This document shows positions 14,349-31,918 of a stretch of DNA of 64,000 nucleotides, one piece after another. The notes under the pieces are model-generated. The model was not told the origin of the DNA. It did no database searches and worked only from the letters and a program-made list of their open reading frames with translations. Position 1 is the first letter of the stretch, and each line of letters opens with the position of its first letter. Made by a program: the position numbers and the translations under genes. The DNA is from an uncultured Actinomycetes bacterium (GTDB taxonomy: Bacteria > Actinomycetota > Thermoleophilia > RBG-16-64-13), in the NCBI GenBank assembly GCA_963706025.1, contig CAVPLM010000005.1, forward strand, positions 1,139,650 through 1,203,649, read 5' to 3'.

Positions 14349-14406
14349 GGAAGGCACGTTTGGCGGGGCAAAGACCGAGCGAGTCCATCTGCAAGGAGGT
14401 CTCACC

Positions 14407-15419: not shown

Positions 15420-16532
15420 TTATAGCAGGGCTCCCACCATGGTGCAGGCACGGTCCTGGGAGATCCCCACCCCCTGGCAGGTCAGCTCTCCGTGCCAGAC
15501 GTTCGCTCCGAGAGCCAGGGCCGGATCGTCTTTCATGGCTTGGGCCACGCCCTTGTTGGCCAGGTCCAGCACGTAGGGCAGGGTGACGTTGGTAAGGGCG
15601 AGCGTCGATGTGCGCGGATAGGCGCCGGGCATGTTCGCGACGGCGTAGTGCAGAACGCCCTCTTCGTAGTACACGGGGTCCTGGTGGGTGGTGGCCCGGG
15701 TCGTCTCGAAGCAGCCGCCCTGATCCACGGCCACGTCTACCACCACCGAGCGCGGCTTCATCAGATGGAGCATCTCGCGCGTCACCAGCTTGGGAGCCAC
15801 GGTGCCGGCGACCAGCACCCCCCCGATCACGAGGTCGGCCGACTTGAGGTAGTGCTCCAGGCTGGAACGGTCGGAGTGGACGGTCTTGCAGTTGGCGGGA
15901 AGTACGTCGTCCAGGTACTTCATCCTCTCGGCGGAAACATCCAGGATGACGACGCGGGCGCCCAGACCGGCGGCCATCTTGGCAGCGTTGATGCCGACGA
16001 TGCCGCCACCGATGATGAGCACCTCGGCCGGGGCCACGCCCGGCACCCCGCTGGCAAGGAGCCCGAGCCCGCCGTTCGGGTACGCCAGGTAGTGGGCACC
16101 CACCAGCACCGACATCCGACCTGCCACCTCGCTCATGGGGACGAGCAGGGGCAGGCTGCGGTCGGCCAACTGCACCGTCTCGTAGGCGATGCCCATGATC
16201 CCGCTCTCGAGCAGAGCGTTAGTGAGATCGGGCACCGGGGCCAGGTGTAGATACGTGAAGAGAGTGAGGTCTTCGCGGAAGTACTGGTACTCAGACGGCA
16301 GAGGCTCCTTGACCTTCACCACCATCTCCGCCCGGGACCAGACCTCGGCGGCGCCCTCCACGAGCTCCGCCCCGTTCTTCAGGTAGTCCTCATCGGAGAA
16401 CCCGCTACCCAGACCGGCCGATCTCTCCATGAGGACCCGGTGACCGGCTTGGGTGAGAGCCCATGCGCCTGCAGGCGTCAAGCCCACCCGGTTCTCGTTG
16501 TTCTTGATCTCCTTCGCACATCCGACGATCAC
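15420..16532 (-). CDS. ald: Alanine dehydrogenase
   Basis: KEIKNNENRV, KVKEP, YLHLA, GGGIVG, DVAVDQGG and VANMPGA motifs. Confidence 0.97.
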   Translation of the reverse strand: MIVGCAKEIKNNENRVGLTPAGAWALTQAGHRVLMERSAGLGSGFSDEDYLKNGAELVEGAAEVWSRAEMVVKVKEPLPSEYQYFREDLTLFTYLHLAPVPDLTNALLESGIMGIAYETVQLADRSLPLLVPMSEVAGRMSVLVGAHYLAYPNGGLGLLASGVPGVAPAEVLIIGGGIVGINAAKMAAGLGARVVILDVSAERMKYLDDVLPANCKTVHSDRSSLEHYLKSADLVIGGVLVAGTVAPKLVTREMLHLMKPRSVVVDVAVDQGGCFETTRATTHQDPVYYEEGVLHYAVANMPGAYPRTSTLALTNVTLPYVLDLANKGVAQAMKDDPALALGANVWHGELTCQGVGISQDRACTMVGALL

Positions 16533-16631
16533 GTTACGACCTCCCTAGTGGTTTGCGGCACGGTTGCTGTGCCGTGGTTGCCTTATCCTCGGTCACTTCT
16601 CGATCCGTTATGCAGTTGTGCAGATCCTCCT

Positions 16632-16913
16632 CTATCCGGCCCCCAGCAGGGGGACCAGCACCAGCGTATCCCCGTCGGCCACCTGGGCATCCAGCGAAGG
16701 AAGCACGCGCCCGTTTCGGACCACCCGGATCGCACTCCAGGAACCATCTCCACCCGCCCGGAGGAGACCGCTCAGATCCTTGTTCTCAGCTTCGGCCACC
16801 GCGATGAGCACATCGCGAGCTGTCGGCTGTGTGATCCCGTCCATCTGCAGGTCTATCTCCTCTTTGCCAATAAGGTCCCTGGTGTTTGCCATGAAACGGA
16901 CCTTTATGGACAT
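16632..16913 (-). CDS. MoaD/ThiS-family ubiquitin-like protein
   Basis: Beta-grasp pattern (VRF.A, NG, DGD.L.L.P), adjacent to AOR; ends in GAG. Confidence 0.8.
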   Translation of the reverse strand: MSIKVRFMANTRDLIGKEEIDLQMDGITQPTARDVLIAVAEAENKDLSGLLRAGGDGSWSAIRVVRNGRVLPSLDAQVADGDTLVLVPLLGAG

Positions 16914-16940
16914 GGGCCACCACCCTCGGATGTACTCATA

Positions 16941-18809
16941 CTAGGCGACGATCGAACTCAGCCCCAGTTCGGCCAGCTTGTCCTTGGACGGGATCCCACC
17001 AGGCCAACCCCGTTCGCGATAGTACTCTCCTACCATCTCATCAAAGGGGAGCGGGACGCCGGCGGCGCCGCCCTCGGTGTGAGCGGTGAAGAACCGCTGC
17101 GGCAGCACATAGTCCCTGGCCGGAACGACTCCGTGCTTGAGGTTGAACATCTGCATGAGGTTGACGATGCGCTCGCCGGTCTTGAGAAGCTCGATCGGTT
17201 CCAGGTCCCAACCGGTCACGGCGTTCAGAAGGTCGGTCTGCAACGTGAAATCGAGCCCGGCGAACTCGTAGAAGAAGCAGACGACGGCCGAGTTGCACAC
17301 CGCCATCCGATCCTGGAACTTCATTTGGGCGAGCCCTTTGTATTCCGAGCTGTGAGGGGGCAGCGGATTCAGCATCTCGTCTCTGCCGGTTTCCGGAAAG
17401 GTGACACCGAGCTCGATGGCTTCGGGGAAGCCGTGCAGGTGACTCGCTCCCTTCATCGAGGTGGCGGTTTCGACCGCCATAGAGAGGAAGGCCCTCGGAT
17501 CGTGTGCCGGGACGGCCGCGCCACAGACGTGCAGCGCCGCGTCGGGGATCCCCAGTGCCTCTCCCGCCGGCCTCAGACCCTCGCCGAGAAGACGCGGGAC
17601 TCGGCCGTCACGTCTCGCGACCTTCTCCAGGAGGGCGATCATGGCATCGCCGTCGCCCCACTTGAGCTCGATCCCACCCAGATCTTCCTTGGTGATCGCG
17701 CCTCGCTCGTACGCTTCCATGGCGAAGGCGCAGACCCCCCCGAATTCGATCGTGTCGAGGCTGTATCTATTGCAGAGCTCGTTGGCCTTGTTGATCGCGA
17801 GGAGGTTGTCGATCAGACAGTCGGAACCCATCATGCCCAGAGTCTCGTATTCCGGACCGTAGCTGTCCATGGCATAGGGACCATCTGCAACGGTGATGCG
17901 CCGGTGGCAGCCCATGATGCAGTTGGAGCAGGCATCCGGCTTTGGCTTGAGAACGGGATTGAAGTCCTGACCCTCCCCCGCCCCCAGCTTGCGGGCCCCC
18001 TCCTGCCAGCGGTCCTGCAGGAAGTTCTTCATGGGAAGAAGCCCGTTTTCCTCCCGAGGCACGACCGCCATCGCTTGGCCGAGCTCCCGGTTCGCCTTGG
18101 CGAAATCGGCGTTCTTGGCGCGTTCGGCGTACTCTTTCTTGAGTGCAGAAAGCACATCGGGGCGAGCGATCGGCACGGTCTTCGTTCCGCGAAAAGCGAG
18201 CGCCTTCAGGTTCTTGGAGCCCATGACCGCTCCCATGCCGGTACGGCCGGCACAGCCATGCCCGTGGTTGCAGATGACCCCGGCGTAACGGACGAGGTTC
18301 TCTCCCCCGGGCCCTATGGGGGCGACTTGGATCTTCGGATCATCGAGCTCGGCTATGATGGCATCTTCGGTCTCGTAGGCGTCCGTCTTGCCCCATAGAT
18401 GCGAGGCATCACGGATCTCCACTTGTCCGTCGTGGATGAAGAGATAGACAGGCTTGGCGGCCTTACCCTTGACTACGAGAGCGTCGAATCCGGTCTTCTT
18501 GAACTCCTCGGCGTTGTAGCCGCCCCCGGTGGACTCCCCGAAAATCCCTGTCAGCGGGGACTTGGCACAGATCGAGAACCGCCCGCTGCCCAGGATCCTG
18601 CTCCCGCCTTGGAAGGGGCCCGTCGCGAACACCAGGACGTTATCCGGACCAAGCGCGTCTGCACCGGCTGGGATCTGCTCGTAGAGGATCTGAGCGGCCA
18701 AACCCGTGCCGCCAAGGAAGTTCCGCTGCGACTCTTCGGGAAAGGGGATCGTCTTGCTTTCCCCTTGGGTGAGATCCACCTCGACCATCTTTCCCCAATA
18801 CCCGCTCAT
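16941..18809 (-). CDS. Tungsten aldehyde:ferredoxin oxidoreductase family
   Basis: KSPLTG, GRTGMGAVMGSKNLKA, CxxCxxxC, EYET and DTIEFG motifs. Confidence 0.95.
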   Translation of the reverse strand: MSGYWGKMVEVDLTQGESKTIPFPEESQRNFLGGTGLAAQILYEQIPAGADALGPDNVLVFATGPFQGGSRILGSGRFSICAKSPLTGIFGESTGGGYNAEEFKKTGFDALVVKGKAAKPVYLFIHDGQVEIRDASHLWGKTDAYETEDAIIAELDDPKIQVAPIGPGGENLVRYAGVICNHGHGCAGRTGMGAVMGSKNLKALAFRGTKTVPIARPDVLSALKKEYAERAKNADFAKANRELGQAMAVVPREENGLLPMKNFLQDRWQEGARKLGAGEGQDFNPVLKPKPDACSNCIMGCHRRITVADGPYAMDSYGPEYETLGMMGSDCLIDNLLAINKANELCNRYSLDTIEFGGVCAFAMEAYERGAITKEDLGGIELKWGDGDAMIALLEKVARRDGRVPRLLGEGLRPAGEALGIPDAALHVCGAAVPAHDPRAFLSMAVETATSMKGASHLHGFPEAIELGVTFPETGRDEMLNPLPPHSSEYKGLAQMKFQDRMAVCNSAVVCFFYEFAGLDFTLQTDLLNAVTGWDLEPIELLKTGERIVNLMQMFNLKHGVVPARDYVLPQRFFTAHTEGGAAGVPLPFDEMVGEYYRERGWPGGIPSKDKLAELGLSSIVA

Positions 18810-19034
18810 CCTCGCCTCCTGACACCTTTCATGGACTCACAGCCACTGATGGGCCTCCGCCAGAACCCTCGGCACCACACGGCCGCGGGCGCCCTCCGCG
18901 CTCCGTCGGACCTGTCTTGAATTGTGGACTACGCCAGTCTAACATCCCCCTCTACTCGCTGAAACCTCGCGGCGGCTCTGGAGCTGCGATTTCAGGAGCG
19001 TGCCGAGGGCGAAGCCTAGACGTAAGGAACGGAA

Positions 19035-20445
19035 GTGCTCCCAGACGGTCTACTTGGCGAGTTGAGAGGACATCGTCGGCGCGGAAGACGTGCTCTGGAA
19101 GAGGGCCGATCTTCAGACCTACGAATACGATGGCTACGTGGAGAGGTCACTCCCCGATGCTGTCGTTTTCGTCGAGTCGACGGACGAAGTAGCATCAGTG
19201 GTGCGACTTGCCCAACGCGAGAACATACCGTTCTTGCCCCGCGGCTGCGCCACCAACTTGACGGGCGCCACCATCGCGGTGAGGGGGGGACTTGTCATCG
19301 AAATGGCCCGCATGAGACGAGTCGTGGAGATAGACCTGGCCAATGAGCGAATGGTCGTGGAGTCCGGTATCTACACTGAGGAGATCTCGGCCATCCTCGA
19401 GCCTCTCGGCTACTACTACGCTCCTGATCCGTCGAGCGCCAAAGCGTCTTCCATCGGGGGCAACATCGCGGAGAACGCCGGCGGCCCTCACTGCTTCAAG
19501 TACGGAGTCACGTTGAACCATGTGATCGGGGCGGAAGTCGTGCTCCCCCATGGCGAGGTGGTTTGGCTGGGAGGCAAGGCCGTCGATCTGCCTGGTTTCG
19601 ACCTCCTCGGTGGTTTCATTGGAAGCGAGGGCACTTTTGGGATCTGTACCAAGGCTGTTCTCCGGATCCTGCGAAAGGCTGAAGCCATCAAGACGTTGCT
19701 GGCTATCTACGACAGCATCGATGACGCCGCCAAGACGGTCACTGCCATAGTGGCCGCCGGCATGATCCCGGCGACTCTCGAGATGATGGACAAGCTCGCG
19801 ATCCAAGCGGTCGAGGATTCACAGGCTCTGGGGTTTCCCAGAGACGCTGCTGCGGTGCTCCTCATCGAGCTGGACGGGCTCGTCGATGGTCTGGAAGACA
19901 TGGCCGCCGACGTGCTTGCGATGTGCAGGCGCAACAACGCCCGCGAGGTCCGGGCGGCAGGCTCGGAAGAGGAACGGACCGCCCTTTGGAAGGGACGCAA
20001 GGGCGCGGTCGCGGCCGTCGCTCGCCTGGCCCCCAATTTCTTGCTCATCGACGGCACGGTACCTCGTACGAAGCTCCCCGACGCCTTGCGCAAAGTCTAC
20101 GAGATCGGGGACAAATACGATCTCAGGATCGCGAACGTAGCTCACGCCGGCGATGGGAATCTGCATCCGTTCGTGTTGTTCGACAGCAGGATCAGCGCGG
20201 ACAAAGAGCGGGCCATGAAAGCGGCCATGGAGATCCTTGCCGCCTGTGTGGCGCTGGGCGGCACGATAACCGGGGAACATGGCATCGGTATCGAGAAGAT
20301 GGAGGCGATGAGCATTCTCTTCACCGAGAACGATCTGAGAGCTCAGCAATGGCTCAAAGAGGTGTTCGACCCGGTCGGACTGTGCAACCCCGGCAAGGTC
20401 CTGCCTGCGCGAGTTGCCGTTGGGGGGGGTGCTCATGCCGCATGA
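19035..20445 (+). CDS. glcD: Glycolate/D-lactate oxidase FAD subunit GlcD-like (+1 frameshift ~19068)
   Basis: APDPSS, GGNIAENAGG, GSEGTFG, HAGDGNLHP, GEHGIG, NPGK. N-terminus MLPDGLLGELR is in another frame. Confidence 0.9.
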
Positions 20446-21790
20446 TGTCGGTGACCTCCTGGCCGAGCTGACGCTCCTTGCCCCCGGGGCCGCGGCGGAT
20501 GGAAACCCGCAGACCAGCGTGGCTGGACTCGTGCCGGCCGTGCGTGTGAGTCCGACCACAGTGTCCGAGTTGGGACAGATAGTGGGTTGGGCTTCCAGGC
20601 GCGGCCTGGCGATGGCCGCGCTCGGGGGCGGGACCAAACTGGGGATCGGAAACCCTCCTTCTCGCCTGGACCTGGCGCTCGACATGAGCGCCATGAGTTC
20701 CATCACTGAGTATGACGCAGCGGATCTTGTCCTGACCGCTCAGGCGGGGGTGACCATCCAGCACCTTCGGTAGATGGTGCGCGAGGATTCTCTGGTCTTA
20801 CCGCTCGATCCACAATCCAGAGACCGAGCCACCATAGGGGGAGTGATCGCCTGTGCGGACCACGGCCCCCGGCGACGACAGTATGGCGGTCTTCGGGACC
20901 TGGTCCTCGGACTGAAGGTCGTTCTCCCCGATGGCAGCCTGGCCGGTTTCGGCGGTCGGACTCTCAAGAACGTCGCGGGTTACGATGTGGGCAGGCTTTT
21001 CGTCGGTTCGCTGGGGACGATAGGGGTCATCGCGGAGGCCACAGTGCGTCTCCTGCCCATGCCCGCCTGTGAGGAGCTTCTGCTTGTCACGGTACCCGGC
21101 TTGGAGCAGGGGCGCCGGCTGGTGGCCAGGATCCTGGGATCGGTTCTGATCCCCTCTTCCCTCGAGCTCCTCTCACCGGCATGCGTAGGATTGCTGGGCT
21201 TCGATCAGCACCTTGGATCTTCCGACACCGAGAGCCTTCTGCTTATCGCCCTTGAGGGACACCCCGCCGCGGTGGAGCGCCAGGTGCGCGACCTCTCCGC
21301 CTTCTGTGCTGAGCTGGACTCGGGAACGGAGATGGTCGAGTCTCGCCGCGCGTCGGAGCTTGGATTGCCCGTTGATGAAGCCTGGGATACCTTCGCAGGA
21401 CTCCGCGAGAAGGCGCTCGGCAACGGGTCTGGGGTCGGTTTGCGCTGTACGGTGCCGCTCGCGCGTGTCTGGGACCTGGCCGCTGCCGCGGAGGAGCGTT
21501 CTCGGGCGAGTAGCGTTGACCTGTCGTACACGATGAGCTGCGGGACAGGATACCTCGAGGCCTACGCTGCCGGTTCCCCGGCCGATCTGCGGACGTTCGC
21601 GGAAGGGGTGCGGGAAGACGCGGAGTACCGAGAGGGTGCGATGTCCGTGCTTGACGGCTGGTCTGTCCTCGGCGAGGAGTTCGACGCCTGGGGAGGTCAG
21701 CGGACCGATTTCGGCCTCATCAGAGCTGTGAAGGAGAAATTCGATCCCCAGGGCCTCATGAATCCCGGTCGCTACCTGGGAGGGCTGTGA
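20435..21790 (+). CDS. glcE: GlcE-like FAD-binding subunit interrupted by an in-frame TAG (20771-20773)
   Basis: GGGTKL, AQAGVT, LPLDP, ATIGG, KNVAGYD and FDPQGLMNPGR in one frame with a single stop. Confidence 0.85.
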
Positions 21791-23191
21791 GCATGGGACC
21801 CCAGCCCTCGACAACCGCCGAAGGTGCGGCCGCTGCGACAGCGCCCGGTGGGGTCACCGAACTCCTTGATCTCTACGACGAGGTCGCCAAGTGCGGGCGG
21901 TGCGGATTCTGTCAGCCCACGTGCCCTGTGTATACGGCCACGAACAAGGAAGCTCACGTGGCGCGAGGCAAGAACGCGCTGTTCCGCAATCTCATCGAGG
22001 GGGAGACCCCGCTGGATCCCGATCTCCGGGAGGCCTTCGAGAACTGCCTCTTGTGTCGCGCTTGTACTGCGAACTGCTTTCCAGCAGTAAAAACGGACCA
22101 GTTGGTCATCTCCCTTCGGGAGACGTACGGGCAGCAGCTGGGGCGGCCCACGATTCAGCGGTGGATATTTCGCAGACTGCTCCCCCATCCGAGACTCATG
22201 TCCTGGATCGTCGGCACCATGTGGATGGGGCGCCGGCTCGGTCTGGCGGGGGTCGCGAAGCGCCTCGGTCTGCTGAGGATGATCAATCCCAAGCTGGAGA
22301 ACGCGATGGAGATCCGGGAGGAGGTGCCCAGCAGCTTTCTGAGGACCAGGCTGAAGAAGCGCGGCTCGGCCGGTGAAGGCTTCCTCCGGTCTCAAGGTCG
22401 GGTACTGGATCTCCTGTGGCTACAACTACATGCTGCCCGAGGTGGGCGAGGCTACGGTAGACGTCCTTGAGCAGAACGGGATCGAGGTGACGGTCCTGCC
22501 CAACGCCTGCTGCGGTCTGCCGGTGTACTGCTACGGGGACATTGAAGGAGCACGGCTTCTTGCCAAGAGTAACCTCGACAAGCTCGGTGACTTGGGTCAA
22601 TACGACTACATCGTGTCCGACTGTGGCAGTTGCTCGGGTCATCTCAAGGAATACGCCGACCTCCTGAAGGACGACCCCGAGTACGCCGAGAAGGCCACGG
22701 CCCTTGTCGGCAAGGTACGGGCTTTCAGCGAGTTGATGCACGCTTTGGGCGTCGGCGTTCCTCTCGGTGAGCTTCCGGCCACGGTCACCTACCACGATCC
22801 GTGTCATCTCGGAGCCCGCTACCAAGGCATCGTGTCTCAACCCCGGGAGCTCATAAAGTCCGTTCCCGGCGTCGACTACCGAGAGCTCCGCGAGGCCGAC
22901 TGGTGCTGCGGCGCAGCTGGGTCATACAACTTCATGCACAACGACATCTCTATGAAGATCCTTGACCGCAAGGCAGAGAATGTCGAGAAGTCCGGTGCGG
23001 ATGTCCTGGTGACGGAGTGTCCTTCGTGCATCATGCAGTTGTCGCTTGGAGCCAAGCGTCGCGGCCTGCCTACGCGGGTTCTCAGTGTCTCTCAGCTGCT
23101 CCAGGAGGCCGAGCAGGCGGCACCGCCCGCGGGGACGAAGGCGACCTCGACAACGTCGACTGCCCGCGACCACGAGAGCCCGGGGCGGTGA
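21787..23191 (+). CDS. glcF: GlcF-like Fe-S/CCG-domain subunit (+1 frameshift ~22372)
   Basis: Two CxxCxxCxxxC(P)-type clusters, then CCG, YHDPCHL, CCGAAG and ECPSC. Confidence 0.88.
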
Positions 23192-23215
23192 GACTCAGCT
23201 AAGGATCACCTGTGA

Positions 23216-23260
23216 AAGACCCGGCGCCGGGCTCAGGATCTGAGCCCGGCGCCGGGTCTT
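23216..23260. terminator. Bidirectional terminator-like hairpin
   Basis: Perfect 21-bp stem AAGACCCGGCGCCGGGCTCAG-gat-CTGAGCCCGGCGCCGGGTCTT between convergent glcF and gldA. Confidence 0.8.
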
Positions 23261-23335
23261 CGCGTTATTGCACCTTGTCCTGCTTCTTCGTCCTCGCCCG
23301 TGCGCTAGGACCGCAGCCGGCCTTTCGCGGGCGGA

Positions 23336-24451
23336 TCAGCTCTTCGCGGCCAGGTACGCCCGGCCGAGCGCATCCGCGCCCTTTATGGCGTACATGGCGG
23401 TCTCGGGAGTCACGGGCATCGGCTCACAGTACATAGTGTCTCCGGGAGCACAGGCCGCCTTACCGACCTCCAGCAGTTTGCGGTCGAGCTCGGCTCCCTC
23501 ATCCTTCACGTTGAGCTGAGCAAGCGTCATGGGAAGGTCCACCGAGTGAAGGAAACCAAGCACCTCGTCGATCTGCGTCTTGGCCCGGTTTTCCAGCACC
23601 TGCATCGCCAGCACGGAGAAGGCGACCTTCTCACCGTGCGAGAGCGAGTGGGTCTCCTCGAGGACGGTGAAACCGTTATGAATGGCATGAGCAGCGGCCA
23701 GGCCGGTGCTCTCGAAGCCCAGTGCGCCCATCAGCAGGACGGCCTCGACGACCTTCTCGTACACCGGGGTCGCCGCTTGGACTTCGGCCGCCCGCATCGC
23801 GTCCAGGCCATAGGTGATCAGGGTCTCGTAGCATAGCTTGGCGATGGCTAGAGCCGTCGCTGAGGCCGTACCTCCAGCGAAGTTGGGTTTCCCCGTGAGC
23901 GCGCACGTCTCACCCTCGATCCACCCGGCCAGGCAATCTCCCATCCCCATCCTCAGCATGTGCGCCGGGTTCTTGATAAGGATGCTCGTGTCGGCCACAA
24001 CGAGATCGGGGTTTCGCGGGAGGAACACGTACTCTTCGAACACGCCCCCCGAACTGTAGACGACCGTGACCGCGCTACAGGCGGCGTTGGTGGCCACAGT
24101 GGTAGGAACGTTGATCCAACGCGCTCCCACATCGCGACCAACCACTTTGACCGTGTCAAGCGCTTTGCCGCCACCGGCGCCGATCACTACGTTCGCCTCG
24201 GCCGCCTTCGCGAGACCCGTCAGCCGACGGATCTCCTCCCAGGACGACTCGCCGCGGAAGAGCTCTACGCTGACCTTGACTCCAGCCGCCTCGAGGCTGC
24301 CGACCAAGGGCTCCTGGACTGCCTGAAGGGCTGTCTTGCCACCGATGATCAGCGCCCGCTGACCCATCTGGGCCGCGTACTTGCCTACCTCGGCCACCGC
24401 TCCAGGGCCCTGAACGTACTTGCTCGGGCTGATCAGTGTCTTCATCAACAT
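23336..24451 (-). CDS. gldA: Glycerol/1,2-diol dehydrogenase
   Basis: SPSKYVQG, GGGKALD, PTT, GFESTGLAAAHAIHNG and HGEKVAF motifs. Confidence 0.92.
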   Translation of the reverse strand: MLMKTLISPSKYVQGPGAVAEVGKYAAQMGQRALIIGGKTALQAVQEPLVGSLEAAGVKVSVELFRGESSWEEIRRLTGLAKAAEANVVIGAGGGKALDTVKVVGRDVGARWINVPTTVATNAACSAVTVVYSSGGVFEEYVFLPRNPDLVVADTSILIKNPAHMLRMGMGDCLAGWIEGETCALTGKPNFAGGTASATALAIAKLCYETLITYGLDAMRAAEVQAATPVYEKVVEAVLLMGALGFESTGLAAAHAIHNGFTVLEETHSLSHGEKVAFSVLAMQVLENRAKTQIDEVLGFLHSVDLPMTLAQLNVKDEGAELDRKLLEVGKAACAPGDTMYCEPMPVTPETAMYAIKGADALGRAYLAAKS

Positions 24452-24509
24452 TGCCGATACCTCACATAGCCCTAGACGTCACTCGAAACGGTGGCGTCTC
24501 GAGCCCTCG

Positions 24510-25835
24510 CTAGAGCGATTTCTCGTTCTCGGCTATGGATTCCTCGAGGATATCCAGAGCTTTGTCGGCTTCCTCATCGGTCAAGACCAGAGGCGGCTTG
24601 AGCTTGATGATATTGCCGTTGCCGCGCGCGCCGTTGGTGCCGAACAGTGCCCCCTTGCCGAGAGCCAGACCGAATATGTTCCCGGCCCCCGCATACCACG
24701 GCTCCTTGGTGGCCTTGTCCTTGACGATCTCGACGCCGATGAACAGACCCATAGACCGGACATCGCCTATGGACTTGTACTTGGGCATCATCTCGTTCAG
24801 CCGCTTGGACAACCGTTCACCCTGCCGCGCCGCTTTTTCGGGTAGCTTCTCCTCGTTGATGACGTCGATGGTCGCGATCCCGGCCGCGCAGGAGATCGGG
24901 CTCCCGCCGAAGGTGAAGATGTGCCACTGGTCGTCGATGATGTTCTCGGGGAGGAGGCCTTCCCTGATCACGGTGGCTGCGATGGGCATGCCGCCACCTA
25001 TGGCCTTGGACGTGGTGAAGATGTCGGGTTCAACGTCGAAGTACTCGGACGCCCACCACTTGCCGGAGCGTCCGACCCCGGTCTGAACCTCGTCCAAGAT
25101 GTAAAGGACGCCGAACTCGTCGCAGATCTCGCGTATGCGCTTGAAGTAGCGCTTGGGCGGGACCATGTGTCCGCCGTTACCAGGGACCGGCTCCTGTAGG
25201 AAGGCCGCCACGTTGCCGGCGGAGCCGTACTTGATGGCGTAGCGAAGCGCCTCGGCGCATTCGAGATTGCACTTGTCGGGCCCCGGCTGGCCGAAATAGC
25301 AGCGATAGCAGTAGGCGTTGGGGATCTGATGGAACCCGGGGAAGCGGGGCCAGGGGCCGACCCGGCTGTAGGATTGACCCAGCAACGACAGCTCGGCAAG
25401 CGTGCCGCCGTGGTACGAGAAATAGGTCGAGATCACTTCGTTCTTGCCGGTGGAGAGCATCGCCATCTTCAGGGCCACTTCGTTGGCCTCAGAACCGCCG
25501 CTGGAGATGTACATCTTGCAGTTGTTCTTCATCTTACCCGGGGCGACGGCGGCGAGTTTCTCCGCGAAGACGATCCGGACATCGTTGACGAAGGAAGTCA
25601 AGATGTGGAACGACCTGTCCGCCTGCTCCTTGACTGCCGCCACGACCTTGGGATGGCAGTGCCCGATCCCGACCACCCCGGCCGTCTGAGACAGCATGTC
25701 GATGTACTCTTTGCCGTCGCAATCCCAGAACTTGGAGCCCAGCCCCTTCACGACGTTGATGGGGATGTTGCCCCAGCCGTGGGTCAGGTACTTGCTGTCA
25801 CGTTTACAAGCGTCTTGCGTTGACATCTCTGGCAT
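24510..25835 (-). CDS. Class III PLP aminotransferase
   Basis: GHCHP, SGGSEANE, YHG, DEVQTG, TSKAIGGG (PLP Lys) and TFGG. ATG follows AGGAG. Confidence 0.93.
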   Translation of the reverse strand: MPEMSTQDACKRDSKYLTHGWGNIPINVVKGLGSKFWDCDGKEYIDMLSQTAGVVGIGHCHPKVVAAVKEQADRSFHILTSFVNDVRIVFAEKLAAVAPGKMKNNCKMYISSGGSEANEVALKMAMLSTGKNEVISTYFSYHGGTLAELSLLGQSYSRVGPWPRFPGFHQIPNAYCYRCYFGQPGPDKCNLECAEALRYAIKYGSAGNVAAFLQEPVPGNGGHMVPPKRYFKRIREICDEFGVLYILDEVQTGVGRSGKWWASEYFDVEPDIFTTSKAIGGGMPIAATVIREGLLPENIIDDQWHIFTFGGSPISCAAGIATIDVINEEKLPEKAARQGERLSKRLNEMMPKYKSIGDVRSMGLFIGVEIVKDKATKEPWYAGAGNIFGLALGKGALFGTNGARGNGNIIKLKPPLVLTDEEADKALDILEESIAENEKSL

Positions 25836-26082
25836 CGGATAACTCCTATCGCTCGAGGTCAGCAGGTCCATGATGGCCGCGGTCACCCGGGATGCGTCGG
25901 GCACATACGGCCTCCGCGAACGAACTGCCCCACCCACAGTGAGGCATTCACCCGCAGAATACCATCGGGACTCCGAGTTGTAAGTCGGGGTTTATCATAG
26001 TTCAATCCCCGCAATAAGCTATAATGGCCCGGGGAGACAGGTCGCGGGCTGAAGGATCCGATGCGACAGGGACGGAGGAAGT

Positions 26083-27678
26083 GTGCGCGCAGTGGCGGAC
26101 ACTGCACAGATTCGACAGGCTCTGACGACAGTGCTGGGGTGGCGGAGCGCTCCTGCGCTCGCCGTCAGCCACGACGCAGTTGTGGTGAAATCAAGCCGAC
26201 CCGGCGTTGACGCGGCAGAACTTGGAGCAGACTCCCTAATGTCTCGAGCGTTCGAATTCGGCGGCATGTCTCTCCGGCTGGTCACCGACTCCCTCGTCGG
26301 TAATGAGCCGATGAAAGAGATACCAACGATCGTTATCGATACGATGCTCAGGAGTATTGTCCAAGCGCATTTCGCCGTGTGGTACGTGTGGCATGTTCCC
26401 ACGGGGACGATAATCGTCCCGGGCATGCAGGAGTTGCTGGACATACCAAACCGCGACGTGCCCACGATCGTCGAAGAGTGGTTCGCGCGCGTGCATCCCC
26501 AGGACCTCGCCAGGATGGTCGCCGAGAACGACGAAGCACTTCGTGCCAATTCCGCCTTTCGAAGCGAGTATCGACTGCGCCGCAGCAGCGGCAGCTACAT
26601 CTCGGTCAGCGATTGGGGAATCGTCATTGCCGGAGATGATGGGAACGCAGAGTGGATGGCTGGAGGGCTGCGTGATATCACCGTTGAGAAAAGCCTCGCC
26701 CAAGCCCGCGAGGAGTCGGCCGGGCTTCGCGAGGGGCTATTCCAGAAGGCTCTCATGCCCGCTTTCTTGATAGACGGGAGCGGCTTGGTGGTCGACGCCA
26801 GCCAGTCCGCAACGAGTCTCTTCCGCGCGCCACGCGACATGCTCTTGGGGCAACCTGCCACCGCACTCTTCCCTGAAGACCTGATCTGGAGAACAAGGGG
26901 CCCGGGTGTTTCCGAAACGGCCAAGGGGGATGTCCCACAGGCTCGCGAGATCGAGGTGGAGATCGGGGGCACCCGTAAGTGGCTCCTTTCTACGGTGGTG
27001 CCGTTCGTCGTCGGAAACGAGCAGATGGCGTTCGTGCTCGGTGTCGATGTGACCGAGCGCAAGCGTGTCGTCAAGGCCCTCGCCGAGTCCGAGGCCGCCC
27101 TTAGAGAGAAGACACGCGAACTTGAGAGGCACAACGTGGCGCTCCAGGTCCTCATGGAGCAGAGACGCCGCGACCTCGAAGAGCGTGGACGGGTCCTGGC
27201 GGAGAACATCGAACGACTCGTGTTACCTACGTTGGACCGCCTTGGCGTCGCCTTCTCTGAGCATCCAGAGGCCTCTCTTCTCGAGGTCGTGAAACAGACT
27301 CTCAACGAAATCGCGAGCCCGCTGCTGGGGACTACTGGTTCTCGGCTGGCCCAGTCGCACGGTCTCACCCGGCGAGAGCACGAGGTTCTACAGCTCGTTA
27401 GGGTTGGCAAGACAACGTCGGAAATCGCCCGTGTCCTGCACTTGTCGCCTGCCACCGTGACCTTCCATCGTGGCAACATTCGGCAGAAGCTCGGACTTCA
27501 TGGAACGGGCGCCAGTCTGTCCCAAGTTACGGTCAGCACCGTGACCGTTCCGGCGGAGACGACCTCACGGGCGGATGTCCTCACCCGGCCAGAGAGCGCC
27601 CTCGAACCGGATGTAGTTGCGCTGCTCAGGCTCGTCGACCAAGAGGGCAGCAACGACATGCCGCCCGTAGAGCCGTAG
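26083..27678 (+). CDS. PAS-PAS-LuxR transcriptional regulator (start uncertain)
   Basis: VHPQD...EYRL PAS/PAC, DVTERKR, LTRREHEVLQLV...EIA..L..S..TV.FHRGNIRQKLG. TATAAT at 26020-26025. Confidence 0.88.
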   Translation: MRAVADTAQIRQALTTVLGWRSAPALAVSHDAVVVKSSRPGVDAAELGADSLMSRAFEFGGMSLRLVTDSLVGNEPMKEIPTIVIDTMLRSIVQAHFAVWYVWHVPTGTIIVPGMQELLDIPNRDVPTIVEEWFARVHPQDLARMVAENDEALRANSAFRSEYRLRRSSGSYISVSDWGIVIAGDDGNAEWMAGGLRDITVEKSLAQAREESAGLREGLFQKALMPAFLIDGSGLVVDASQSATSLFRAPRDMLLGQPATALFPEDLIWRTRGPGVSETAKGDVPQAREIEVEIGGTRKWLLSTVVPFVVGNEQMAFVLGVDVTERKRVVKALAESEAALREKTRELERHNVALQVLMEQRRRDLEERGRVLAENIERLVLPTLDRLGVAFSEHPEASLLEVVKQTLNEIASPLLGTTGSRLAQSHGLTRREHEVLQLVRVGKTTSEIARVLHLSPATVTFHRGNIRQKLGLHGTGASLSQVTVSTVTVPAETTSRADVLTRPESALEPDVVALLRLVDQEGSNDMPPVEP

Positions 27679-27703
27679 CTTCAAGACTAGACTCGAACGT
27701 ACT

Positions 27704-28492
27704 CTACATCAGGTGCTCGGCGCGCTCCACCTCTTCGACGTCGTTGTACCACTTCTTCTTGGTGCCCACCCTGGCCCTGAGCTTCCAGCCGACCGACTTC
27801 GGCTCCTTCTCGATCATGTCGAGCAACTCGCTGATGCGGCCGGAGATGATTTCACGGTCGTCTGGAGACAAGACCTCGTAGTTTCCCAGGTGTGATTTCA
27901 CCTTGTTCAGATTGGTCGTGGACGTGTGGTAGAAGCCCCAGTCCTTGCACAAGATCCAGCTTAGGTACGCGCCGTTGATGACCTCGTTGTCATGGTTACC
28001 GATCTCATGCTCCCGAAGCAGCATCATCAGATCTATGACGTCCTTTTCATTGATATGGACGATCTGCAGCTTCTCCAGCATCAGATCCGCCAAGCTGAGG
28101 GTCAGCTTGTCGATCTCCAGACGCCCCTTCTCCCAACTCACGACGTGGCACATGTTCAGCTTGTCGAAGAAGACGTCGATGTGAGGTCGCGCGTCCCCGG
28201 GGTCGTCGTAAATCTTCCGGCCCATCATGAGACCGGGCGTCAGGGCCGCCTGCTGCGACACGAACCCCAGGTCATTCACGAAGAACTTGTCTATCGCCTT
28301 CTCCTGCTTGTAGTAGGCGGCGAAATCGAGGTCCGTCAGGACCCGATGCATCGAGATCTGGAGGTGCTGATAGAGAGGGCAGTGAACGCGAAACGCCATG
28401 GCCCCCAGCAACCGAAGGTGAATACCCTTCTCCTCGGCTGAAGCGATGATGTCCAGCGCGAGTCTTTCGCACTCCTCGTATTCTAGTGCCAT
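27704..28492 (-). CDS. Hypothetical protein with nucleotidyltransferase-like motifs
   Basis: RLLGAMA, TDLDF and IDVF (third acidic residue), plus LEKL..D..D, resembling a Pol-beta-superfamily NTase. Confidence 0.6.
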   Translation of the reverse strand: MALEYEECERLALDIIASAEEKGIHLRLLGAMAFRVHCPLYQHLQISMHRVLTDLDFAAYYKQEKAIDKFFVNDLGFVSQQAALTPGLMMGRKIYDDPGDARPHIDVFFDKLNMCHVVSWEKGRLEIDKLTLSLADLMLEKLQIVHINEKDVIDLMMLLREHEIGNHDNEVINGAYLSWILCKDWGFYHTSTTNLNKVKSHLGNYEVLSPDDREIISGRISELLDMIEKEPKSVGWKLRARVGTKKKWYNDVEEVERAEHLM

Positions 28493-28521
28493 ATCCTTCG
28501 CATTCCCCCTCTACCTTAGAA

Positions 28522-28679
28522 CTCGTTTCGGAATGAAGTCTTGGCCGCCTCATTCCGCGCTGGGCGGAGCGATCCATCGTCCTCAGTCGCGCCCGTAGCG
28601 CTGCTACGACCTCTCCCTGCGTCCTCGCCTCACTCGCGCCGATCGCACCCTGTCGGCAAAGACTTCATTCCGAAACGAG
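28522..28679. mobile_element. MITE-like element with 21-bp perfect terminal inverted repeats
   Basis: CTCGTTTCGGAATGAAGTCTT (28522-28542) / AAGACTTCATTCCGAAACGAG (28659-28679); internal CGTAGCgctGCTACG inverted repeat; non-coding. Confidence 0.65.
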
Positions 28680-28743
28680 CTTTTGTGGACCTAACCCGAA
28701 TTCAGATTGGTGATCACTATTCGCCGCGCGAGACAAGCACATC

Positions 28744-29700
28744 TTATCCAGAGGTGAAGGTCACGCTTTTGATGCCTTTCTTTTCGATATCCACTATGAC
28801 GCCTCTCAACACCCCTTCACCATATTCACTGCCTGGATTGAGGCACACTGTGCGCCCCAGCTTCTGTGTCCCTCTGCTCTCGTGTATGTGACCGTGCAAC
28901 CCCAGTCGGGGCTGGTACTTGTCTATGGCCTGGCGGACGGCGCGGCTGCCAACCGGGACCATGTGCGGTTTACCGCCCAGCTCGAGGGTGGGCCGCATCT
29001 GGTCGTCTAGTTGCGGAGCTTGGTCCAGCACGGTGTCGCGGGGTGGACAGTGGAAGTTGAAGATGCAGTGCTCGAAATCCTTGACCTGGCCGGCCATCGA
29101 GTCGATTATGGCCTCGAGTTGCTCCTCCGGAACGTCCCGCGGGCATCGCCACGGCGTGATGTTGCCGTAGCCGGTACTGATCATCGTGTAGTACTCGTCG
29201 ATCTGAATAACCTTACCTTCGGGATTCGAAGCGTTGGTGCCGCCGTCGAAGAGCTCATCGATGTAGAACTCATCGTCGTTGCCGGGCTGGACGTAGCATC
29301 TGATATTGGTTCCCTCCAATCGTTCCTCGGCGAATTGGAGAGACTCCCTGATGCGCTCCTTCATTAGACGCGTGAAGATGGCGTCTTGAGCTGCGGAATC
29401 GCCGGCAAGTGCTTCCAGCTCCTCCGGGTCGGTCATATACGGGTAGTAGCCCATGTCGATGATGTTCCGCTTGAACGCCTCGAGCTGCTCTCCCTCCTTG
29501 ACCACGTGCTCGCGATCGAGGTGATTGATCTTGAACGACCCATCGGATTGTCGCACGAACGGGATGACCTTTTTGCCGGTGATGTCTCCCCCCAGAATGA
29601 TCACCTGGGCCTCGTAGAACTTACCGGCGTTGATGAACTTCCTGAAGCAGACGTTGGACCCGTGCGTGTCGGTGGCGAAAAAGACGCGCGTTACTCCCAT
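28744..29700 (-). CDS. Calcineurin-like metallophosphoesterase (Icc-related)
   Basis: TDTHG, GGDITG, PGNDD, HCPP and HGHIHE motifs. Confidence 0.9.
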   Translation of the reverse strand: MGVTRVFFATDTHGSNVCFRKFINAGKFYEAQVIILGGDITGKKVIPFVRQSDGSFKINHLDREHVVKEGEQLEAFKRNIIDMGYYPYMTDPEELEALAGDSAAQDAIFTRLMKERIRESLQFAEERLEGTNIRCYVQPGNDDEFYIDELFDGGTNASNPEGKVIQIDEYYTMISTGYGNITPWRCPRDVPEEQLEAIIDSMAGQVKDFEHCIFNFHCPPRDTVLDQAPQLDDQMRPTLELGGKPHMVPVGSRAVRQAIDKYQPRLGLHGHIHESRGTQKLGRTVCLNPGSEYGEGVLRGVIVDIEKKGIKSVTFTSG

Positions 29701-29717
29701 GCATGTCAACCTATTCC

Positions 29718-29748
29718 GGGCTGGGTCGGGGAGCTCCCGACCCAGCCC
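29718..29748. other. Intra-operon hairpin
   Basis: GGGCTGGGTCGGG-gagct-CCCGACCCAGCCC, 13-bp stem between the permease and phosphoesterase genes. Confidence 0.6.
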
Positions 29749-29794
29749 ATTTTGACTACCAATACCCTGAGACTCCAGTCACCGAAAGATTACC

Positions 29795-31423
29795 TCAGTC
29801 AGGCGGAATCGTCTTGAAGCGCTTGTCCATCGACACACCCTTGCTTTTCTGCCAGATCGTGGCGATGAAGTAGATGACGATGGGAAGCAGGATGAAGAAG
29901 AGCGCCGTATACAGGAGGTTCTTGGTGTTCATGGTAGGAGTCGTGCCCGTTAGGAACGTGGCGTAGACGGTGACCCCGGCCACGATAGCCCCTATGGTTC
30001 CGAGAATAGTGATGACTGGTATGCCGAGGAATCTCGACTGCACAAGAGCCGGGGACTTCTCGAAGATGTCCTTGCGAACGTACGGGAACACCATGGCGGC
30101 GATACCGAGGATAAACCAGCCGACCATCCAGATGGTCACCGTGTAGGTGATGTAGGCGTACCAGGTGGTGAAGGTCGACACGGTCAGTACCAGCCAGGCG
30201 ATAACGAAGGCCACAAGAACGCAGCGGTTCGGAGAGCCGTTTCGAGAGACCTTGTTCATCCACGCGGGCAGCAGGCCGTCAAAGGAGAAGGCAAACAGGT
30301 TCCGGACCGGACCGAAGGACAGCCCGAGGATACCACCCCAGGTGGCGACCATGAAGCCGATGGGGCCGGCGAGAGCTACCAGGAACCAGTTCTGGGTCAT
30401 CCACACGACCTGATAGCTGATGAGCGGGTATGTGCCGATAAGCGCGCTGGCCCCTCCCGCGCTCTCCAGGGTGGCCAGGGTCCGGATCGTGTCTTCGCCA
30501 AGGCCGTAGTTCGCCACCGAGGAGAAGACGATCCAGTACACGAAGAAGAGGGCCATAGACCCCAGTTGGGCGAGGGGCATGGCCACGTTGACCTTCTTGA
30601 TCTCGCCGGAGATGTTGGCGGCATAGGTGGACCCCAGAGTGCTCAGGTTCACGAAAGCGAGACCGGCCCAAACGGTGGCCGCGATGGCGAACGGCGGCAG
30701 GCCTCCCATATCGTTCAACGTGGCCGTCACATCGGACCACTTGAGGTTCTGGAGGGCCTCGAATCCGGCGATGGTTTGGGCTTCCCCCGCAGACAGAGCG
30801 ACCGCGATGAACGCGATCAACATAGCCCACTGGATGACGAGGACGACCCACATGGCCCTCATCACGTGCTTGGTGCCCATAGCCATGACGCCGAATGCTA
30901 TGGCAAGGACCCCTGAGGCCAGGAGCCATATCGCCCATCTGTTGTCTGGAGTCGTGATGCTGAGATACTGGCCCCATTTGATGAGAGTCTCGTTTTGCGT
31001 CGCCAGTCCCTCTGCCAGGAAGAAGTTGCCGAACCCCCAGTTCACGAGCCACTGGGAGAGCAGCCCCGACCAGTTGATGCCCACGATGGTGAGGGTCCAG
31101 GACGCGATAAAGCCCAAAAGCGGGTGCAGGATACGACTGACATAGATGTACTCGCCGCCGGACCTCGGCATGCTGAGCGACATGAACACGTAGACGGCGG
31201 CGATCGGGAAGAGCAGGAGGATGGTGAAGCTTGCCCAGAACCCGTTGGCACCGAGATAGAGCGTCTGTTGCTGAGTGTAGTAGAGGAACGCAAACGTCAT
31301 CGTCGGGCAGACAAAGGCGTAGACCAGAGCGCTCCACGGACTGACCGATCTCGTCAGGCCGGAGGCGCGCCGCACGAACAGTTCCCCTCCTGTTCCTTGT
31401 CCTTCCTTGCTTTCTGTTGCCAT
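29795..31423 (-). CDS. APC-superfamily amino acid/amine permease
   Basis: LFVRRASGLTR, MPRSGGEYIYVSR, SGEIK, FDGLLP and many TM segments; ends in IPPD. Confidence 0.9.
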   Translation of the reverse strand: MATESKEGQGTGGELFVRRASGLTRSVSPWSALVYAFVCPTMTFAFLYYTQQQTLYLGANGFWASFTILLLFPIAAVYVFMSLSMPRSGGEYIYVSRILHPLLGFIASWTLTIVGINWSGLLSQWLVNWGFGNFFLAEGLATQNETLIKWGQYLSITTPDNRWAIWLLASGVLAIAFGVMAMGTKHVMRAMWVVLVIQWAMLIAFIAVALSAGEAQTIAGFEALQNLKWSDVTATLNDMGGLPPFAIAATVWAGLAFVNLSTLGSTYAANISGEIKKVNVAMPLAQLGSMALFFVYWIVFSSVANYGLGEDTIRTLATLESAGGASALIGTYPLISYQVVWMTQNWFLVALAGPIGFMVATWGGILGLSFGPVRNLFAFSFDGLLPAWMNKVSRNGSPNRCVLVAFVIAWLVLTVSTFTTWYAYITYTVTIWMVGWFILGIAAMVFPYVRKDIFEKSPALVQSRFLGIPVITILGTIGAIVAGVTVYATFLTGTTPTMNTKNLLYTALFFILLPIVIYFIATIWQKSKGVSMDKRFKTIPPD

Positions 31424-31715
31424 AAATCCACCTCTCTTCAGACACCATTGCAGTCTAGAGGTCGACACAGTACCGGCCTTAGCCAAGGGACGATATGCAG
31501 GAGTTCTTGTCTGTCGTCAGCCTGTCGGCACCGGCGCCGGAACCGATAACTCAAACTTCCCCGTTCAACTGACCCGGGTCCGCCGCGGTAGGTAAGGCGA
31601 TCACAGACTACCCCCCTCCTGTCTCACCTCCCTTCCGTCCCCAATCCGGTTTCTGGGGCGCTCAGGAAACAGTCCCCTTCGTGATCTCAGGTCGGACCGC
31701 TCTGGAGCTAAAGCG

Positions 31716-31744: not shown

Positions 31745-31918
31745 GAGTTTTTTGCCTTGTCCTGCGGTGCAGTAACCGTGGAGTCTTCCCGGCTTTGGAG
31801 GCATGAGGGGGCCCCGCCATCCGGACACTCCGGTTGTTGTCCTCGCAGCGGTTCAAGCTGTACAGTGAAGCGCGCGACAAGCTGACGCGACAGTAAGACC
31901 TTGGGGAGAGATCGACTC

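Follow-up and report, generated by a model that had tools for sequence, protein, structure and literature searches.

In a stretch of 64,000 nucleotides from an uncultured actinobacterium of the class Thermoleophilia (contig CAVPLM010000005.1; the whole stretch is called the window here) we describe a conserved gene cluster for which an anaerobic catabolism of the amino-alcohol type is plausible and partly supported. The cluster encodes a class III pyridoxal phosphate (PLP) enzyme, an alanine dehydrogenase (Ald), a protein of the tungsten-type aldehyde:ferredoxin oxidoreductase (AOR) family with a MoaD-like small protein, a GldA-type glycerol dehydrogenase, a GlcDEF-like 2-hydroxyacid oxidase or dehydrogenase, a LuxR-type regulator and a triad of permease, metallophosphoesterase and nucleotidyltransferase-like protein (NTase). 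The linkage of these genes is real, with GldA, LuxR, GlcDEF and Ald less fixed than the core, and the triad is a self-standing, widespread unit that travels with other pathways. As to function, we favour the breakdown of a small hydroxylated amine by the transaminase route of the original prediction (a model's annotation of the bare sequence), to which we would give a little under an even chance, and the most economical guess for the substrate is an amino alcohol, for example ethanolamine or 1-amino-2-propanol.

The source genome (3.66 Mb in 30 contigs, 92% complete, 7% contamination) carries the window, with a G+C content of about 63%, on a 1.2-Mb contig. All thirteen reading frames named in the original prediction were found where it had placed them, and the long frames span 15420-31486. 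Linkage was surveyed in 40 related genomes and in a metagenome scan that gave 28 loci. The PLP enzyme has 11 matches in its own genome, and among the 40 relatives an ortholog (90% identity) was found only in G015, a member of another genus of the same family, the next best match having 41% identity. Orthologs of all twelve genes of the cluster are present in G015 with 72-91% identity and in a changed order. On one contig (C197) the NTase, phosphoesterase, permease, glcF, glcE, glcD and LuxR genes lie on one strand, with glcDEF directly upstream of the permease, and the PLP enzyme and AOR genes lie on the other; a second (C245) carries the 3' end of the AOR gene, MoaD, Ald (a 91% ortholog) and then a formamidase-family gene, and on a third (C79) GldA comes after the NTase gene's 3' half. 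C79 starts with 141 nt that recur unchanged at the end of C197, and its 127 nt before GldA resemble the PLP enzyme gene's 3' end at 88%. How these contigs of G015 join is therefore uncertain in detail, and strain variants may be involved. In the metagenome contig L113, the molybdopterin oxidoreductase, permease, phosphoesterase, NTase, PLP enzyme, GldA, AOR and MoaD genes follow each other in this order on a single strand with short gaps. Recurrence in rearranged form indicates that the grouping is beyond chance, and three gene orders with the same membership and enzymes 87-91% identical are good evidence of functional coupling. The co-occurrence in relatives on which the original prediction had staked itself beforehand was thus found, both in the twelve orthologs of G015 and in the co-directional string of L113.

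The position upstream of the PLP enzyme gene could be compared in nine metagenome contigs from close relatives that extend at least 800 nt before it. An NTase gene lies directly upstream in seven of them (L103, L104, L106, L108, L111, L112, L113), the regulator and then NTase in one (L102, essentially the window's own population) and GlcD in one (L105). Downstream follows either GldA (L102, L103, L113) or AOR (L107, L129, G015), and the 875 nt available in L111 gave no match to the query gene set. The regulator is present in G015 and L102 and absent from the gap between NTase and PLP enzyme in L103 and six further contigs. The core of the predicted membership is conserved, but gldA, the regulator and glcDEF vary among close relatives. 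More distant members of the PLP enzyme clade (44-59% identity) are found beside permease and phosphoesterase genes (L116, L117, L119, L022), beside Ald (L114, as a divergent pair, and L115) and beside AOR (L114, L022), and SDR, AKR, GFO/IDH or xylose-isomerase-like genes adjoin them. A polyol or hydroxy-carbonyl dehydrogenase accompanies the clade in each type of context seen, and Ald adjoins it in three contexts (the window together with G015, L114 and L115).

Two features of these neighbourhoods were noted in passing. In the window, Ald and an acetamidase/formamidase-family gene of 301 aa (14407-15312) converge; the G015 counterpart of the latter (L194 586-1488, 89% identity) stands in tandem, 13 nt after Ald, and may be an operon member there; a local inversion separates the two genomes at this point. 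In the distant loci L116 (5674-9856) and L119 (8316-9752), genes for MttB-superfamily methyltransferases and a corrinoid protein are divergent from the genes for the Lys-type PLP enzyme, permease, phosphoesterase and an Amidohydro_2 protein, a hint at demethylation of a methylated amine ahead of deamination. The permease and phosphoesterase genes are placed there between the PLP enzyme and the methyltransferase and corrinoid genes.

From the gene set we infer the following route. The divergent APC-superfamily permease would import the compound, and the target of the NTase and metallophosphoesterase would be either the permease or the molecule that it brings in. Deamination would fall to the class III PLP enzyme, most probably through transfer of the amino group to pyruvate, and Ald would regenerate pyruvate with release of ammonia. 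The resulting (2-hydroxy)aldehyde could then be oxidised to the acid by the AOR-family enzyme with ferredoxin as acceptor, GldA would interconvert hydroxy-aldehyde or ketone with the diol, or amino alcohol with amino ketone, and the GlcDEF-type enzyme would oxidise the 2-hydroxy acid to the 2-oxo acid, either glyoxylate or pyruvate. With 1-amino-2-propanol as the substrate, pyruvate would be regenerated and the cycle closed. The transaminase scheme alone uses all five of PLP enzyme, Ald, AOR, GldA and GlcDEF, and is kept as the best for this reason; it is supported by the membership kept in two genera, by Ald in three contexts and by the polyol or hydroxy-carbonyl dehydrogenases throughout.

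Several observations weigh against this route. Where an arginine would usually bind the carboxylate, the PLP enzyme has a lysine (K411, found in 90% or more of 35 clade sequences), and the solved structures closest to it belong to racemases or epimerases of amino acids and not to amine transaminases. Both glcE and glcF are broken in the assembled genome. GldA is missing 3' of the PLP enzyme gene in G015 C197, L107 and L129, and L113 is without Ald or GlcDEF inside 17 kb. The scheme does not explain the roles of the NTase and phosphoesterase, and the triad says little about the substrate of the pathway, since it occurs in 18 loci without PLP enzyme, AOR or GldA. The enzyme activities are all predicted from sequence. 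Of the amino-alcohol route as first proposed, the gene set and its linkage therefore stand, whereas the dephosphorylation step found no specific support, transamination, with Lys in the place of Arg, remains a prediction, and the sequence names no substrate.

The PLP enzyme belongs to class III (fold type I): PF00202 covers its full length, and K277 and D248 are invariant in 35 sequences. It falls under every NCBIfam equivalog cut-off, among them those for the GABA (gamma-aminobutyrate) and ornithine enzymes (TIGR00700, 272.6 against 506.65; TIGR01885, 237.2 against 378.4) and the acetylornithine and putrescine enzymes (TIGR00707, 269.9 against 410.05; NF008570, 263.8 against 612), and it reads YHGGT where the P. 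horikoshii structure 7vno reads FHGRT, so that the distal-carboxylate arginine is missing. It is thus no standard GABA, ornithine or acetylornithine enzyme, which supports the original prediction. Homologs in metagenomes grade from 91% down to about 45% identity, and proteins of metagenome-assembled genomes (MAGs) labelled Odinarchaeia, Bathyarchaeia and Thorarchaeota have 57-59% identity to it; a scan of genome contigs gave no close relative, the best having 52% identity in a Bathyarchaeia MAG. A cysteine motif (CxxC...C...C) that is missing from the nearest structures was considered as a feature of the clade and dropped, being common in the wider class III paralogs.

Going by the nearest structures, which are archaeal and lactobacillal, the PLP enzyme might racemise or epimerise amino acids, and the cluster might serve the use of D-amino acids. 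The best matches in the PDB are a broad-specificity racemase of P. horikoshii (9wrf, 267.7 bits), an isoleucine 2-epimerase (about 254) and an alanine/serine racemase (9wqz, 246), with 7vno also among the nearest and dialkylglycine decarboxylase and the ethanolamine-phosphate phospho-lyase 6tor next, and the leucine/methionine racemase model NF045634 gave 323 bits. That model has a cut-off of 800, however, and the racemases in question retain the arginine that the clade lacks. A racemase would also yield no aldehyde for AOR, which is its partner in the window, G015, L113, L107, L129, L114 and L022, and we consider a role in D-amino-acid use very improbable.

The lysine itself deserves more attention. 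The C-terminal motif reads GNIIKLKPPL in the PLP enzyme as against NVLRIAPPL, SAIRLIPPL and NILRFQPPL in the four nearest structures, and the Arg of this (V/I)(L/I)R(x)xPPL motif binds, in the family at large, the alpha-carboxylate of the partner, be it an oxo acid or an amino acid. In the 77 class III sequences of our tree the position is Arg in 32, Phe in 13, Lys in 11 and another residue in the rest, and the 11 with Lys are seven members of the PLP enzyme clade and four proteins similar to PRK06148, a family that includes kinase fusions related to phospho-lyases. Lys was found in all five PRK06148-like proteins (all of them under the family cut-off and putatively phospho-lyase-like by their sequences), in the form NVLK(V/I)(K/R)PP or DVLKIRPP, and one of them, in L188, is a full-length kinase fusion. 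The PLP enzyme may thus share an active-site feature with phospho-lyases, and the lysine leaves open that it acts as a lyase instead of a transaminase. The amino alcohol would in that case be imported as a phosphate ester, or be esterified by the NTase and trimmed by the phosphoesterase; the PLP enzyme would eliminate ammonia and a leaving group of the phosphate type, in the manner of ethanolamine-phosphate phospho-lyase, and AOR would oxidise the aldehyde so formed to the acid, in a kinase-free variant of the route through amino-alcohol kinase and O-phosphate phospho-lyase. In its favour are the rarity of the lysine and its confinement to these two groups within the tree set, the K-x-K/R-P-P motif common to the five PRK06148-like proteins, the lysine in all clade members that adjoin a phosphoesterase and the presence of 6tor among the PDB matches (217 bits), and it would give the NTase/phosphoesterase pair a role as kinase substitute. 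However, in a quick maximum-likelihood tree the two lysine groups form separate clades, with values of 93 and 100 in the Shimodaira-Hasegawa-like approximate likelihood ratio test, which puts the PLP enzyme outside the phospho-lyase family; its score for NF004799 is 268.8 bits against a cut-off of 1128, and 6tor is only the 11th PDB match. Ald, which stands beside the enzyme in three contexts, is needless for a lyase, L114 and L115 have neither triad nor kinase, and acetaldehyde or propanal as a product would leave GlcDEF without a role and GldA with a weak one. On balance, a lyase seems unlikely.

The transaminase route has the advantage that it also accounts for the remaining enzymes. Full-length similarity of AOR to the P. 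furiosus enzyme 1aor (410.9 bits, its nearest solved chain) and the presence of both AFOR_N and AFOR_C domains place it in the AOR family, which makes it tungsten-type by family, and it missed the E. coli-type equivalog NF007354 (189 against 868). The MoaD-like gene lies 3' of AOR also in L113 and G015. For GldA the nearest solved chains are glycerol dehydrogenases (e.g. 1kq3, 318.9 bits), and it fell short of the narrower equivalogs, with 356 against 550 for glycolaldehyde reductase and 335 against 700 for propanediol/glycerol dehydrogenase. Ald is assigned by its score above the TIGR00518 cut-off. The route had been predicted to be independent of vitamin B12, and this agrees with the genome: the ethanolamine ammonia-lyase protein EutB (PF06751) had no match in the 92% complete assembly, the same search being positive in an E. 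coli control. The features are collected in Table 1.

Table 1. Genes and other features of the cluster in the window, with scores for the family models.
Feature	Position	Strand	Observations
Ald, alanine dehydrogenase	15420..16532	-	TIGR00518 496.4 bits (cut-off 391.85); PF01262 and PF05222; last gene of aor-moaD-ald
MoaD/ThiS-like small protein	16632..16913	-	PF02597 25.1 bits; TIGR01687 34.9, under the cut-off of 49.5
AOR, tungsten-type aldehyde:ferredoxin oxidoreductase family	16941..18809	-	PF02730 246.7 bits; PF01314 356.6 bits
GlcD-like subunit, FAD-linked 2-hydroxyacid oxidase/dehydrogenase	19090..20445	+	PF01565, PF02913; TIGR00387 469, under the cut-off of 567.9
GlcE-like subunit	20414..21790	+	interrupted by in-frame TAG at 20771-20773
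GlcF-like Fe-S/CCG subunit	21787..23191	+	two frames; extra base within 22363-22368
GldA, glycerol dehydrogenase family	23336..24451	-	NF006941 413.2 bits (cut-off 336)
Class III PLP enzyme, about 441 aa	24510..25835	-	PF00202 326.9 bits (cut-off 30.5); uncharacterised clade
PAS-PAS-LuxR(GerE) regulator	26083..27678	+	PF00196, PF08447, PF08448; divergent from the PLP enzyme gene
Pol-beta-fold nucleotidyltransferase-like protein, 262 aa	27704..28492	-	triad member; fold from model
Dispersed repeat, about 170 nt, inverted ends	28500..28720		between the phosphoesterase and NTase genes
Metallophosphoesterase	28744..29709	-	triad member; PF00149 21.3 bits, just below the cut-off of 21.5
Divergent APC-superfamily permease	29795..31423	-	triad member; PF13520 95.6 bits
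Cytoplasmic-type molybdopterin oxidoreductase, possible upstream member	32552..34519	-	PF04879, PF00384, PF01568; under all NCBIfam cut-offs

Homologs put the length of the PLP enzyme at about 441 aa and, for the permease, align from residue 22 of the long frame; this sets the true starts near 25835 and 31423. The division into four transcription units is consistent with the spacing between genes, but scans for promoter and terminator patterns gave no more sites than shuffled sequence, and so it is spacing and strand that carry the four units.

The triad was found well beyond this cluster. A second copy lies in the same genome, 510 kb away (G000:C5:655700-659300; L138 7145-11342), with an AsnC-type regulator, the permease, a phosphoesterase (45% identity) and an NTase (41-43%) split in two pieces, and no PLP enzyme or AOR gene adjoins it. 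With the phosphoesterase profile the family was detected in 27 of 199 genera of the phylum and in 41 genomes, the unpublished G057 and G152 included, out of a sample of 301. Among 27 published loci, the window's own excluded, 23 have an adjacent NTase homolog and 20 an adjacent permease homolog; counting the two unpublished loci as well gives 25 and 22 of 29. The order elsewhere in the phylum is often NTase, phosphoesterase, permease, the reverse of that in the window. Up to about 9 kb to each side of 18 other triad loci no homolog of the PLP enzyme, AOR or GldA was found; Ald is present at one of them and GlcD/F-like genes at one. Eight of 12 annotated triad loci are beside choline/betaine- or methylamine-type genes, either an aldehyde dehydrogenase and/or a glycine-betaine/choline-type binding protein (OpuAC; L172, L173, L176, L177, L178) or DAO and GCV_T demethylase-type genes (L181, L186, L187), and the other four are beside amidohydrolases, a D-serine-dehydratase-like gene, sugar-type genes or unknowns. 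The eight point to catabolism of choline-type amino alcohols or of methylamines and in this speak for the favoured explanation. The original prediction had the phosphoesterase dephosphorylate an imported amino-alcohol phosphate. A unit that stands by itself and occurs with other pathways gives this step no specific support, and the dephosphorylation is one possibility among several.

The 262-aa protein of the triad matched nothing in searches of Pfam, NCBIfam and PDB sequences, and neither the phosphoesterase nor the permease (at E<=0.001) had a PDB sequence match. An AlphaFold2 model of the 262-aa protein (predicted local distance difference test score, pLDDT, 87.7) indicates a Pol-beta nucleotidyltransferase core, with VIA-align Z scores of 12.1 to ANT(2'')-Ia, 11.8 to 5uvd, 11.6 to MenT1 and 10.0 to LnuA, and eight chains at Z>=8; Foldseek alone was weak (best E 3.1e-3), and neighbours in a protein language model belong to clusters automatically named nucleotidyltransferase. 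G30, D54, D56 and D106 are invariant across 34 sequences, which makes it probable that the protein is an active NTase. The 28744..29709 protein is, by its motifs (DTHG, GGD, GNDD and GHIHE, conserved in 32 sequences) and its modelled fold (pLDDT 92.5), a calcineurin-like metallophosphoesterase; of 164 Foldseek matches at E<=0.001 the best is aq_1956 (2yvt, E 2.3e-11), followed by TT1561 (1uf3), both structural-genomics proteins without an assigned function. In the permease about 12 hydrophobic spans can be recognised, and a large soluble domain is absent.

These properties allow a bolder form of the lyase explanation, in which the NTase and metallophosphoesterase replace the kinase, so that the amino alcohol would be O-nucleotidylated and trimmed to a phosphate-type ester, which the Lys-type PLP enzyme would then eliminate along with ammonia. 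In its fold the NTase comes nearest to enzymes (ANT(2''), LnuA) that O-nucleotidylate the hydroxyl groups of small, amine-rich molecules, which suits a lyase, but the 18 triad loci without PLP enzyme speak against one, and we regard the kinase replacement as distinctly improbable. If it were true, it would amount to a kinase-free and B12-free deamination of amino alcohols with the aldehyde burnt by a tungsten-type enzyme, and the triad would serve to prepare substrates of the choline type in hundreds of other bacteria and archaea. The triad is the more general unknown of the two parts of the cluster, its two enzymes being without functional annotation, and its function, once worked out, would annotate thousands of genes now called hypothetical.

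The wide distribution of the triad also suits a looser interpretation of the neighbourhood, in which the triad has a general function as an uptake or regulatory cassette, PLP enzyme, AOR and Ald together degrade a non-hydroxylated amine or amino acid (a polyamine, a beta-alanine/GABA-type compound or similar), and GldA and GlcDEF serve an unrelated metabolism of glycerol or diols and of lactate or glycolate, kept nearby by history. GldA, GlcDEF, LuxR and Ald are each absent from the loci of some close relatives, glcE and glcF are broken while the rest is retained, AORs of the 1aor type are generally known as broad aldehyde oxidisers in amino-acid fermentation, and the clade profile also matches a polyamine:pyruvate transaminase in the PDB (9j4z, 270 bits). 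Against this, the twelve-gene set is kept through at least three rearrangements between two genera, glcDEF in G015 is on the same strand as the permease and directly upstream of it, and polyol or hydroxy-carbonyl dehydrogenases go with the enzyme clade in all the context types seen. The missing distal-carboxylate arginine and the scores under the putrescine and GABA cut-offs also argue against such substrates, and it seems that a mere neighbourhood of this kind is improbable.

The state of glcE and glcF bears on the last step of the transaminase route, as the GlcEF step is broken in the present assembly and GlcDEF is thus no intact three-subunit enzyme in this genome, where GlcD is also under its cut-off. 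The predicted glcDEF genes are all present here, but two are interrupted, by the TAG in glcE and the frameshift in glcF; all three genes are intact in G015. The glcE translation around the TAG reads ...QHLR*MVRED..., and G015 has an unbroken frame of 453 aa with TCG as the matching codon. Comparison was also made with four public runs from four studies, which are sediment and freshwater metagenomes with contigs mostly 95-99% alike to the stretch: the position is GAC in X1 and GAG in one X8 contig. A recoded TAG was considered and set aside, the position being Ser, Asp or Glu in relatives and another genetic code seen as unwarranted. In glcF the Fer4 dicluster domain lies in 21787-22470 and the CCG domain in 22373-23191; G015 has one frame of 458 aa without the extra base, and the base is missing also from the aligned contigs of all four runs. 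Nearby, the DUF1846 gene (12832-14422) is apparently frameshifted, with its N-terminal domain in 12832-14217, where the Pfam match stops at residue 336, and its C-terminal domain (PF20921) in a different frame, from 13994 on. Taken with glcE and glcF and with the split NTase of the second triad copy, it points to scattered pseudogenes or else to local errors of assembly. Given the frame change in DUF1846, the split NTase and the unbroken long frames, among them the 8.7-kb one at 41402-50128, we hold real decay of glcEF in this strain to be about twice as likely as an assembly error.

Between the phosphoesterase and NTase genes lies the repeat of about 170 nt. It has 55 matches in the genome, several of them nearly full-length (about 160-175 nt, 83-94% identity), and inverted ends of about 19 nt, and it looks like a miniature inverted-repeat element; in L113 the same gap is just 14 nt.

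A class III PLP enzyme, AOR, Ald, GldA and a GlcDEF-type enzyme do not occur together in any of the closest described systems. The enzymology of amino-alcohol kinase and phospho-lyase is known from Erwinia and Pseudomonas, and RMM has likewise been given a kinase/phospho-lyase assignment. The RMM1 microcompartment locus of Mycobacterium and Rhodococcus, according to PMC4207490, holds a class III aminotransferase-like enzyme, a phosphotransferase, a short-chain amino-alcohol dehydrogenase, as well as an amino-acid permease and an aldehyde dehydrogenase. The present cluster resembles both in its predicted independence of B12, its class III PLP enzyme, its amino-acid-type permease, an alcohol dehydrogenase predicted to act on amino alcohol or ketone and a putative aldehyde-oxidising enzyme, and it has in common with phospho-lyase-like proteins the lysine at the usual arginine position. 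It differs from them in having a ferredoxin-linked AOR instead of an NAD/CoA aldehyde dehydrogenase, in the addition of Ald and GlcDEF, in a PLP enzyme from another clade and in an NTase/phosphoesterase pair that stands in the kinase's place. No shell-protein or APH-type kinase family was found among the Pfam matches of the window's frames. The available parts of PMC8154272 and PMC6750192 contain no list of residues that tell phospho-lyases from transaminases.

A second comparison is offered by the taurine catabolism of Bilophila with Tpa, Ald and SarD. There, too, an amine is transaminated with pyruvate, Ald recycles alanine and a metal-dependent alcohol dehydrogenase acts on the aldehyde, as we propose for the present cluster. 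In contrast, GldA is not SarD (NF050025, 36 bits against 700), AOR and GlcDEF point to oxidation of the aldehyde and not to reduction and desulfonation, and no sulfonate-specific genes were seen in the window. In the peptide and amino-acid fermentation of Pyrococcus, the aldehydes oxidised by AOR arise by decarboxylation of 2-oxoacids. The P. furiosus enzyme (1aor) and the proposed route share the ferredoxin-linked oxidation of aldehydes from nitrogen compounds, but the AOR gene here is operon-linked to one dedicated PLP enzyme and a MoaD-like gene.

The NTase shares its predicted Pol-beta core and the invariant G...DxD...D set with ANT(2'')-Ia, LnuA and MenT/JHP933-type enzymes. Unlike these, with which it has no detectable sequence similarity, it has no resistance or toxin-antitoxin context, and it is always paired with the metallophosphoesterase and the APC permease. 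By analogy with AmtB-GlnK-GlnD, the triad would be a transporter encoded together with a nucleotide-adding enzyme and a possible remover of the modification. The likeness is one of gene content; the triad has no PII protein, and its permease is without a large soluble domain. In searches of open-access full text no paper was found on the triad gene cluster, nor on a class III aminotransferase-AOR module or, judged by titles and the openings of abstracts, a natural ethanolamine-transamination route of like kind, and the view that the complete route is undescribed agrees with these searches.

Free amino alcohols (ethanolamine, aminopropanol) come from phospholipid head groups and cell debris and are common sources of nitrogen and carbon in anoxic sediments. 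The textbook anaerobic route depends on the B12-dependent ethanolamine ammonia-lyase within microcompartments. If the transaminase route is correct, a PLP enzyme together with a tungsten-type aldehyde oxidoreductase would be a ferredoxin-linked alternative in uncultured bacteria, extending through homologs to Bathyarchaeia and Asgard archaea. The enzymes of the cluster are few and soluble and can hence be tested directly at the bench.

A few other features of the window were observed. The molybdopterin oxidoreductase gene is separated from the permease by a HIRAN-domain gene on the opposite strand (31901-32575) both in the window and in L102, and its ortholog in L113 (89%) is on the same strand as the permease, directly upstream. 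Within the 85-nt gap between permease and phosphoesterase, a perfect 14-bp GC-rich hairpin at 29718-29748 could be an element of mRNA processing or stability. Farther away, an unbroken frame of 2908 aa (41402-50128) with GH94 supersandwich and catalytic domains and a glucoamylase-like domain is predicted to be of the cyclic beta-1,2-glucan synthase or phosphorylase type.

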